A stretch of 64,000 bases of DNA from NCBI GenBank assembly GCA_963727445.1, contig CAVSGI010000014.1, positions 96,001 to 160,000 on the forward strand. The letters are read 5' to 3'. Under the pieces are notes generated by a model. The model saw only the letters and a program-made list of their open reading frames with translations, was not told where the DNA came from and searched no databases. The DNA is from an uncultured delta proteobacterium. Lineage in GTDB: Bacteria > Myxococcota_A > Polyangia > Polyangiales > B10-G4. The position numbers were made by a program, and so were the translations under genes. Positions 31,570 to 32,854 of this stretch are shown here, one piece after another (position 1 is the first letter of the stretch; the number at the start of each line of letters is the position of its first letter).

Positions 31570-31826
31570 CGGGAGCGGGGGCGGGAGCGGGAACGGGAAC
31601 GGGAACGGGAACGGGAACGGGAACGGGAACGGGAATGGGAATGGGAGCGGGAACGGGAATGGGAGCGGGAGCGGGAATGGGAGCGGGAACGGGAACGGGA
31701 ATGGGTGCGGGAATGGGAGCGGGAACGGGAATGGGAGCGGGAACGGGAATGGGTGCGGGAATGGGAATGGGTGCGGGAATGGGAATGGGTGCGGGAATGG
31801 GAATGGGTGCGGGAATGGGTGCGGGG
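31570..31826 (+). repeat. G-rich hexamer microsatellite (GGGAAC/GGGAAT/GGGAGC/GGGTGC), about 43 units
   Basis: Directly visible tandem array; units keep the GGG. Confidence 0.95.
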
Positions 31827-31845
31827 TGAGTCCTTTTGAGCGTGT

Positions 31846-31906
31846 TTCTTGGTCATCGCTGAGACCCCTTCTTGGTTGGGAAAGGGGTCTCAGCGATGAC
31901 CAAGAA
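31846..31906. repeat. 25-bp perfect inverted repeat covering the RBS and start of four-helix-bundle gene A
   Basis: TTCTTGGTCATCGCTGAGACCCCTT (31846-31870) and AAGGGGTCTCAGCGATGACCAAGAA (31882-31906). Confidence 0.95.
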
Positions 31907-32235
31907 CACTCTAATCAGATGATTCATCACAGACTTCGAGTCTGGCAGCGGGCGCATGCGCTCGTAGGGCTCGTGTACGCGAACTTGCCGAAGGATGCGG
32001 AGCTGCGGTCGCAGGTGAAGCGGTCGTCCACCTCGGTCGGGGCGAACATCGCCGAGGGGTGCACGCAGAGCTCACGGGCGATGCGGCGCAAGCACTACGA
32101 GATCGCCCGGGGGTCGGCGGTCGAGACGGTTGCTTGCTCGAACTGGCCGAAGCGACGGGGGATCGCCTGCCCGTCGAGGAGGTCCGGAGCCACGGCGCAG
32201 CCATCGCCGCGATGCTCACGAGAATGCTGCGGTAG
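31896..32235 (+). CDS. Four-helix bundle protein A (23S rRNA IVS protein / Avd-like); indels near 31905 and 32137
   Basis: HRLRVWQRA..L...LP....LRSQVKRSSTSVGANIAEG.....YEIARGSAVE, continuing LELAEATG...AAMLTRMLR*. Confidence 0.85.
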
Positions 32236-32241
32236 ACATTT

Positions 32242-32276
32242 GAGAGCCGGGAGGGTCCTTCGCCCTCCCGGCTCTC
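32242..32276. terminator. 14-bp hairpin between the convergent four-helix-bundle genes
   Basis: GAGAGCCGGGAGGG-TCCTTCG-CCCTCCCGGCTCTC. Confidence 0.7.
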
Positions 32277-32280
32277 GCAC

Positions 32281-32608
32281 TCAGCCGTGGATGATGCGCC
32301 AGAGTGAAGCGGCGGCGTGATCGAAGCGGTCGTGTGCCGACGCGCTCTGCGTCGCGCTGACGTAGCCCCAGGCGACCGCGATGCGGAGTGCCTGCTTGGC
32401 TTCGCGCGCCGAGTTCATCGCGACGGCGAGGCGCTCCGCTCGATGTCCCTTGCGGCCCCACTCGCCCTCGGCAGCATTGAGCGCCGCCGAGCTCGCCGCG
32501 CGCCTCAACTGCGATGCGAGGTCGCGATCTTGGTGTTGGATACTCGTCGGCCAGAGGCTTCGAAGCCTCGATGGCCTCGAGGAGGATGTCGTGGACCAGC
32601 TTGCTCAT
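32281..32608 (-). CDS. Four-helix bundle protein B (23S rRNA IVS protein / Avd-like); frameshift near 32541
   Basis: [22 protein letters not shown]+[26 protein letters not shown]...[18 protein letters not shown]. Confidence 0.85.
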
Positions 32609-32612
32609 GAGC

Positions 32613-32707
32613 CCATGAAACAGACCCGAGCGCAGCGAAGGGGACCGAGGCCGCGGCCCCGAGCCAGCGAACGTGCCATGAAACAGACCCGAGCGCAGGG
32701 AAGGGGA
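32613..32707. repeat. 32-bp direct repeat pair (63-bp period) upstream of four-helix gene B
   Basis: CCATGAAACAGACCCGAGCGCAG(C/G)GAAGGGGA at 32613-32644 and 32676-32707. Confidence 0.9.
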
Positions 32708-32719
32708 ACGGGACGACAA

Positions 32720-32854
32720 GGAACGGGAACGGGAACGGGAACGGGAACGGGAACGGGAACGGGAACGGGAATGGGAATGGGAATGGGAACGGGAACGGGA
32801 ACGGGAATGGGAGCGGGAACGGGAGCGGGAACGGCGAGCGGGAGCGGGAACGGA
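32720..32854 (+). repeat. Second G-rich hexamer microsatellite (GGGAAC/GGGAAT/GGGAGC), about 22 units
   Basis: Directly visible; same strand and unit type as 31570-31826. Confidence 0.95.

Follow-up and report, generated by a model that had tools for sequence, protein, structure and literature searches.

Two convergent four-helix-bundle genes between direct hexamer arrays: a probably mobile cassette in an uncultured Polyangiales genome

Introduction

The closest described systems are found around the four-helix-bundle protein family PF05635. In Coxiella burnetii, an ORF-bearing intervening sequence (IVS) of 23S rRNA is described, in the available part of the account, as a selfish element whose protein is of unknown function (PMC4990558). 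Avd, a protein of diversity-generating retroelements (DGRs), is given as homologous to PF05635 in the accessible portion of another report (PMC10053308), and the text available on the Avd complex reports that its pentamer binds a cis-encoded RNA stem-loop (bioRxiv 10.1101/2023.10.23.563531). Family genes also occur within cas loci, according to the available sections of a further report (PMC3936711). Structures of 23S-IVS proteins have existed since 2006 (2GSC), and the literature surveyed describes no function for them outside DGRs and reports no catalytic role for the PF05635 family.

Long repeats of 6-7 bases behind bacterial stop codons were described earlier without a source. GGGAATC and GGGGA(C/T)T heptamer repeats are known in Xanthomonas and Nostoc, where, as far as the available text goes, no general link to mobile elements was found (PMC4692102); the main text of that paper makes no mention of 'four helix', 'xcc0516', '23S' or 'intervening'.

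Several mobile elements provide further points of comparison. REP/RAYT systems and IS200/IS605 passengers are intergenic and hairpin-rich and produce no target duplication, and REP ends are palindromic. The TRAS and SART retrotransposons, which encode an endonuclease/reverse transcriptase, enter telomeric repeats in opposite directions. In IS10 and IS50, both of which encode a transposase, hairpins block the translation of read-through transcripts. The locus compared here with these systems lies in a stretch of 64,000 nucleotides, referred to as the window, from the genome of an uncultured bacterium of the Polyangiales.

Organization of the locus

The cassette is located between a small ORF (31332-31523), itself 3' of a serine hydrolase gene, and purM (32901). 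A first-pass annotation had described, at 31570..32854, an array, a hairpin, a gene A, a second hairpin, a gene B, a direct repeat and a second array, and every one of these elements was found. Immediately 3' of the stop codon of the small ORF, and to the left of the boundary drawn in that annotation, begins a remnant (31524..31544, + strand; matched by eye to the copies on contigs C6 and C27) of a 95-nt structured unit, E95, which these two sister copies carry within their arrays. The left hexamer array (31571..31822, + strand), with which the unit begins on this side, comprises 42 GGGNNY units in the repeat scan and 42.8 copies by TRF, in line with the ~43 units first reported, and its units are mainly GGGAAC, GGGAAT, GGGAGC and GGGTGC.

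The array is followed by a 25-bp perfect hairpin (31846..31906, + strand; arms 31846-31870 and 31882-31906), detected by inverted-repeat scan and RNA folding, and then by gene A (31919..32235, + strand). Gene B (32281..32608, - strand) faces it, and a 14-bp perfect hairpin lies between the two stop codons (32242..32276; arms 32242-32255 and 32263-32276 in the inverted-repeat scan). Both hairpins had been claimed, and both are perfect inverted repeats; the two genes were placed by HMM and by comparison with sister copies. Beyond gene B, the direct-repeat pair (32613..32710, + strand) is present as described, with the correction that its two motif copies (32613-32647 and 32676-32710) are 35 nt long and 94% identical in the repeat scan, not 32 bp; in sister copies, this motif occurs once, between the B leader and the right array. 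The right hexamer array (32698..32853, + strand) was also correctly recognized, while its count of ~22 units gives way to 18 uninterrupted units at 32725-32832 and ~25 copies by TRF. It forms the right end of the unit, ~47 nt upstream of the purM start, and lies on the same strand as the left array, so that the two are direct flanks, as had been stated.

A promoter/terminator scan of 31300-33000 returned 0 promoters and 0 terminators, and no template/variable repeat pair was found in a repeat scan of 30500-34000. The cassette was said to be free of rRNA, reverse transcriptase and transposase, which agrees with its content: the flanks are protein genes, and the only genes inside are those of PF05635.

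Genes A and B

Both window genes exceed the curated cut-offs of PF05635 (A 67.7 and B 39.5 bits; cut-off 33.8) and TIGR02436 (A 60.9 and B 43.2 bits; cut-off 24), and the family assignment is thus confirmed. In intact copies, the products measure 105 aa for gene A, counted from the second ATG, and 108 aa for gene B. The sequence divergence noted between them is real, with 21 of 58 aligned residues identical (36%) and positions in distant clades of the tree. Four helices are predicted for the product of gene A from an intact sister copy (pLDDT 89.9), and the best structural match of this model is 2GSC (Xcc0516; TM 0.82-0.86), to which gene B was compared by sequence only (E 3.9e-5). Against the chains of the DGR complex (Avd), the model of gene A gives TM 0.78-0.79, but with E ~0.4-0.5 and an identity of ~10%.

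With the C6/C27 pair set aside, the intact copies show dS of 0.5-1.4 and dN of 0.04-0.12, and intact A and B genes are, judged by these substitution rates, under purifying selection. Compared with the four intact copies, the window copy has a one-base frameshift in each gene (A near 32138, B near 32545). Relative to its nearest copy, gene A of the window has accumulated 27 synonymous and 4 replacement codon changes, and gene B 15 synonymous and 16 replacement changes; this gene B may be decaying. As far as sequence can tell, the window copy is the damaged member among the five copies.

Hairpins at start sites and between the genes

In the window, the 25-bp hairpin has an RNA fold z of -9.2, and 0 of 200 shuffles were equally stable. 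Its length ranges from 24 to 29 bp in sister copies, and both the ribosome-binding site of gene A and its conserved first ATG (31896) lie in the 3' arm. Across six distinct sequences, 11 of 28 base pairs have changed on both sides and 0 on one side, a count that rests essentially on the single comparison of the window genome (G000) with a genome of the same genus (G001); the swaps are all strict Watson-Crick pairs, none of them G-U. Three of the five copies have the upstream ATG in frame, but the window copy does not. In the window and C25 copies, this first ATG opens an 8-codon frame (31896-31922 in the window) with a stop codon overlapping the second ATG, an arrangement that could reflect coupled translation or else an assembly indel.

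A second long stem covers the ribosome-binding site of gene B in the four other copies; in the window copy, this B leader hairpin has been lost together with the Shine-Dalgarno site. In 15 of the 16 family genes of the genome, the start region lies under a perfect stem of 12-29 bp, the sole gene without one being B of the window; none of 150 control genes, sampled from a set of 512, had such a stem (threshold >=12 bp perfect). By simple pairing probability, only the A hairpin stands out from the control genes. Among relatives, perfect start-site stems were detected in 30 of 51 genes, with 7 others too close to contig ends, and four genomes (G022, G035, G037 and G011) mostly do without them; the start-region stem is thus common in relatives, not universal. 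The 14-bp hairpin between the stop codons has no T run and was not called as an intrinsic terminator. A related inter-gene hairpin is present in the four other copies and behind A-type genes of relatives, and it is likely a shared 3' end signal.

Copies in the genome, ends and empty sites

The G000 assembly (9.47 Mb, ~69% G+C, 86% complete, contamination 1.3%) contains 16 family matches, namely five A/B pairs plus six genes that stand alone and belong to two other subfamilies. The whole unit, from array and start hairpin through A, the shared hairpin and B to the second array, occurs in five copies at unrelated junctions. Its length is ~1.3-2.2 kb, and the other copies are 82-88% identical to the core of the window copy. 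Across both genes, the C6 and C27 copies share 99.1% identity; their common sequence starts and stops within the arrays and includes two passengers, the 95-nt unit and a 50-bp tandem repeat. This ~50-bp repeat, known from 9 loci, sits between the B hairpin and the right array of these cassettes (approximately L031:4560-4910 and L032:4910-5510). In the C25 copy, an inverted 20-unit tract before the right array (L033:4632-4950) creates a hexamer-armed fold-back, of which degenerate remnants are seen in the C6 and C27 copies.

The array starts 0, 6, 16, 47 or 53 nt downstream of a host stop codon in the five copies. In all five, gene A is co-directional with the upstream host gene and the outer arrays are direct. 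Terminal inverted repeats, transposase and reverse transcriptase were seen neither in nor beside any of these copies, and Rfam gave 0 matches on two sister-copy loci and one family-2 locus.

Presence/absence variation among relatives, as anticipated in the first-pass annotation, is found at the site of the C14:396k cassette: in G001, the flanking genes are ~23 nt apart vs ~1350, with neither genes nor array between them. The C6 and C25 sites of G001 also have no cassette, but the adjacent genes differ too, and the bamA site is rearranged, its two flanking genes being found in other surroundings. For the site of the window copy itself, the G001 assembly (86% complete, 590 contigs) yielded neither purM nor the upstream hydrolase. 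Of the five sites, one is therefore cleanly empty and two more are consistent with this. No target-site duplication was seen between the C14:396k copy and the empty site, where the flanking genes are only ~72-86% identical; the empty site contains a 5-base unit-like seed before the stop codon, possibly by chance. The empty sites could also be losses in G001. Two host orthologs compared between G000 and G001 gave dS of 0.57 and 0.64. Since most copies differ by dS of 0.5-1.4, at or above the host values, only one move (C6/C27) appears recent, and most copies are either old or separate arrivals.

Duplication is also visible for the family-3 cassettes (L035, at C9:916k and 924k of G000, and L036), which lie 3' of the end of a gene that we take to be of ABC-F type and were duplicated together with it. 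The third family-3 copy has carried the last 14 nt of this gene end to its new site.

Hexamer arrays with and without genes

A 6/7-mer tract is present within <=900 nt upstream of 15 of the 16 family genes in G000, vs 195 of 20000 random positions, and chance association is excluded by this difference; in the remaining gene, a mixed tract is visible by eye. Repeat flanks on paralogs, which had been predicted, are therefore nearly general. Arrays are more numerous than cassettes: 42 GGGNNY-type array clusters were counted in G000, of which 10 are at cassettes. Twelve of the 42 passed an automatic threshold for arrays in genes, a crude test, 7 of them as sense-strand Gly-Thr, and more look coding by eye. 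Many arrays outside the cassettes appear to be read in the frame of a gene, as Gly-Thr runs. Of the arrays in G001, four could be placed, and the orthologous positions in G000 lack such an array; one of the four is in frame inside a gene, and two are just behind a stop codon.

Two G001 loci combine the 95-nt unit with an array. At L060:1500-1710, both continue the reading frame of a gene, the G000 ortholog of which contains another linker there, and at L061 they lie 3' of the stop codon of a gene that is presumably secA-like, judged by its C-terminal motif. In the window, short GGGAAC/GGGCGC tracts at 14972-15026 and ~15130-15165, apparently in frame within a gene, surround a segment of ~100 nt that also lies 3' of arrays at C9:881k and partly recurs at C10:228.9k and C15:228.3k.

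One initial proposal had the proteins act on G-rich repeat RNA or DNA. G-richness itself is not conserved, as the units of relatives are GGACTC, GGCACT and GGATTC and have no G3 runs. A quadruplex as conserved signal was consequently rejected, G3 runs being present in G000 arrays and absent from those of relatives.

Convergent pairs in relatives

PF05635 matches were obtained in 23 of 41 relative genomes, with 0-32 per genome and 18 genomes without a match. Among the matches listed, at least 24 convergent pairs were counted by hand in 7 genomes of 5 families, vs 2 divergent neighbors. The strand of the outer arrays was examined in 21 of the 24 pairs and scored by 4-mer similarity because G-C skew failed for balanced units. 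Twelve of these pairs, from 4 genomes, were evaluable (tracts on both outer sides) and 9 were not; in every one of the 12, which represent ~4 independent origins, the outer arrays share a strand. At the loci read, each subfamily keeps one fixed direction relative to the repeat strand within a genome, and the two partners of a pair are opposite.

Partners differ between genomes. Pairs are formed by A and B in G000, by A and family 2 in G001, by sister clades in G009 and G023, and by members of other clades in G031 and G022, in a tree that has few columns and several open forks. In the G031 and G022 pairs, an array is retained between the two genes, and G023 contains a tandem of two pairs and three arrays (array-pair-array-pair-array), which is also explicable by unequal crossing-over. 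The pair had been taken as the primary unit; relatives instead suggest that single-gene cassettes came first and were joined in twos on several occasions.

Of 8 A-type loci from metagenomes, 7 face a convergent partner (5 by script, 2 by eye), although 6 of the 8 come from one source and two repeat stretches already counted. One of these assemblies, unrelated to G000, contains a separate A+B pair with B hairpin and array (L118). A search of genome contigs with gene B returned 240 pattern matches, none of which was confirmed. In two other metagenome pairs (L119 and L120), a ~70-nt unit has been inserted repeatedly between and within both genes.

Candidate helper enzymes

A search of the genome for RVT_1 gave a single match, on contig C1, away from the cassettes, although another reverse transcriptase could be missing since the genome is 86% complete. 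This match fits best with retron models, below their cut-offs. It corresponds to a retron-like reverse transcriptase of 426 aa (L066, G000:C1:31.5k), just under the St85 cut-off, that lies behind a gene with a possible zinc finger.

Four Y1_Tnp genes are present in G000, two of them with hexamer-like tracts alongside. A RAYT-like clade of 232-235 aa (L067 and L068, at C10:985.5k and C9:168.6k) falls below the NF047646 cut-off, has 45 copies in G030 and 10 in G002, and looks like a family of its own in active spread. The RAYT clade tested occurs in 8 of 41 genomes, including the 45 copies of G030, which has no PF05635 match itself, and was not found in the cassette-rich genomes G009, G010, G022, G031 and G035; among 30 of its loci, a clear tract is seen at only 3. 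For this one clade, a general helper role was rejected, since it does not co-occur with cassettes. In addition, a hairpin repeat family flanks a RAYT-like gene (L069, G000:C9:565.7-568.9k) and is scattered at 54 loci genome-wide, one copy adjoining a pure 48-unit GGGAAC array at C14:205.5k.

Proposed origin and movement of the cassette

That the array-bounded two-gene unit is mobile is very probable, and the original proposal of a mobile module without its own mobility enzyme is supported by multi-copy dispersal, the empty site, the HMM matches and the repeat flanks. For its nature, the preferred explanation, given about an even chance, is a selfish array-bounded cassette that arose by fusion of two single-gene cassettes of opposite polarity. 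On balance, the A and B proteins probably serve the spread of their own element, a role that fits purifying selection on copies that change place. By analogy with Avd, these four-helix proteins likely act as nucleic-acid-binding rings that favor their own copy.

Under the preferred explanation, each single-gene cassette would be tied to one direction with respect to the array strand, two cassettes of opposite direction would come to share an array tail to tail, and, after loss of the middle array, the pair would move as a single unit. Recombination or template switching between the direct arrays could then give a circular copy with one array, which would enter 3' of a stop codon, at a short hexamer tract or seed, the arrays varying afterwards by slippage. 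Cutting and joining at the arrays would be supplied by host enzymes, and expression would come from read-through of the host gene, kept low by the hairpins. This circle route is tentative and somewhat doubtful; direct array ends, the lack of terminal inverted repeats and the tandem multimer all fit a circular copy that re-integrates at arrays.

Alternatively, only the arrays and hairpins might be mobile, with the genes as cargo selected for a benefit to the host (regulation or defence), perhaps as a hairpin-silenced two-subunit or toxin-antidote-like pair. Gene-less arrays do come and go alone, as the four G001 arrays absent from G000 illustrate; purifying selection is also compatible with host benefit, A-type genes are almost always paired (5/5 in G000, 7/8 metagenome loci), and the reported cas loci with family genes (PMC3936711, available sections) point the same way. 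However, a copy number of 0-32 among 41 relatives, with 18 lacking any match, and a near-total link between gene and array (15/16) speak against it, and unrelated sites and partner swaps between close relatives are unexpected for a fixed two-subunit function, so that cargo status is considered rather unlikely. The cassette could also lack autonomy, its hairpins being recognized by a RAYT-like HUH transposase that acts in trans and moves the unit as single-stranded DNA. The four Y1_Tnp genes, two of them beside hexamer-like tracts, the fact that neither target duplication nor terminal inverted repeat was seen, and the strict Watson-Crick swaps in hairpin A, expected of a DNA-level stem and drawn essentially from one comparison, would suit such a passenger; this is nevertheless improbable given a RAYT clade that was found in 8 of 41 genomes but not in five cassette-rich ones, is abundant (45 copies) in cassette-less G030 and is accompanied by a clear tract at 3 of 30 loci only.

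An RNA route would have the Avd-like proteins bring in a reverse transcriptase acting in trans, with the cDNA priming or inserting at hexamer tracts. This idea draws on the role of Avd as an RNA-binding accessory subunit of the DGR reverse transcriptase, as described in the available text (bioRxiv 10.1101/2023.10.23.563531), and on the position of all five copies after host stop codons, gene A lying on the strand that is transcribed. The route is very improbable, as the only RVT_1 match is retron-like and on another contig, the unit covers both strands with a shared 3' hairpin, and the 3.5 kb scanned holds no template/variable repeat pair. Perfect hairpins of 25-29 bp could serve as RNase III substrates, and an insert like an rRNA IVS, cut from transcripts by RNase III and spread passively by horizontal transfer and homologous recombination, may be imagined on this ground. 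The protein family is the same, and the IVS of Coxiella carries a terminal stem of 28 bp, with heptamer repeats ahead of the ORF, according to the portion of the account available (PMC4990558). Direct rather than inverted flanks are unable to close a stem round the genes, however, and the unrelated protein-gene junctions have no shared homology for recombination, which makes such passive spread highly improbable. An assembly artefact or strain mixture can practically be discounted. Frameshifts do occur in the assembly (6 over the 34.4 kb of coding sequence compared, a figure that is too low since some rows were antisense frames), and the window copy has several lesions, its two frameshifts in 645 nt exceeding that rate; but copies that differ by 12-18% with a strong synonymous bias, and the A+B pair with B hairpin and array in the unrelated assembly (L118), refute an artefactual origin of the element, and contamination is only 1.3%. 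Elsewhere in the window, the glyoxalase-like and purN-like genes and those after them also change frame (30333-30751 and 33944-35900), a sign of indel errors in this part of the assembly.

Beyond the selfish fused cassette, a wider reading is speculative and held to be unlikely: PF05635 rings would be the working part of a class of mobile DNA with tandem hexamers as ends and landing sites. Its two classes would read the repeat oppositely and fuse repeatedly tail to tail, and the same activity would seed gene-less tracts behind stop codons and in frame, yielding Gly-Thr-like linkers.

Comparison with known systems

A literature search, with most subscription journals outside its scope, found no description of this cassette. 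It resembles the ORF-bearing IVS in its proposed selfish nature, in its protein family, in the short tandem repeats before the ORF and in the long stem near the translation start. It differs in being located at unrelated protein-gene junctions and not in rRNA, in having two genes and five sites, and in being flanked by direct arrays, without terminal inverted repeats that would enclose the ORF in one stem; moreover, the cassette genes are under purifying selection by the substitution evidence, whereas the Coxiella ORF is decaying, according to the available text (PMC4990558). With Avd and the DGRs, it shares a predicted fold, and the Avd pentamer bound to a cis-encoded RNA stem-loop, known from the accessible text (bioRxiv 10.1101/2023.10.23.563531), offers a possible precedent by analogy. 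Unlike a DGR, the cassette has no adjacent reverse transcriptase and no template/variable repeat in 30500-34000.

The cassette arrays, starting 0-53 nt after host stop codons, occupy the same position as the Xanthomonas heptamers. They are direct hexamer arrays, whereas those of Xanthomonas and Nostoc are heptamers, often in inverted pairs, in the part of that work available (PMC4692102). In contrast to IS elements and MITEs, the cassette has neither a transposase gene nor terminal inverted repeats, and its ends are direct arrays. Like REP/RAYT systems and IS200/IS605 passengers, it is intergenic and hairpin-rich, with no target duplication seen at the one clean empty site, and its genome contains RAYT-like genes; however, its ends are tandem arrays and not REP palindromes, no transposase lies in or beside the copies, and the RAYT clade tested does not co-occur with cassettes. 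By analogy, the two cassette classes, each with a fixed and opposite direction relative to the repeat strand, may be likened to TRAS and SART, and start sites that would likewise be hidden in read-through RNA recall IS10 and IS50, but the cassette encodes neither an endonuclease/reverse transcriptase nor a transposase.

Altogether, on these comparisons, the cassette falls outside the IVS, DGR and IS/MITE classes and, for the clade tested, the RAYT class. If its proteins drive movement, it would be a mobile element without a transposase, recombinase or reverse transcriptase of its own. To what was described before, this locus adds a pair from two subfamilies that probably moves as a single unit, whose ends are mapped and for which two recently separated copies and an empty site are known. 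It also adds evidence for repeated independent pairing, and it connects the PF05635 family and the repeats behind stop codons to a defined, very probably mobile unit of ~1.3-2.2 kb.
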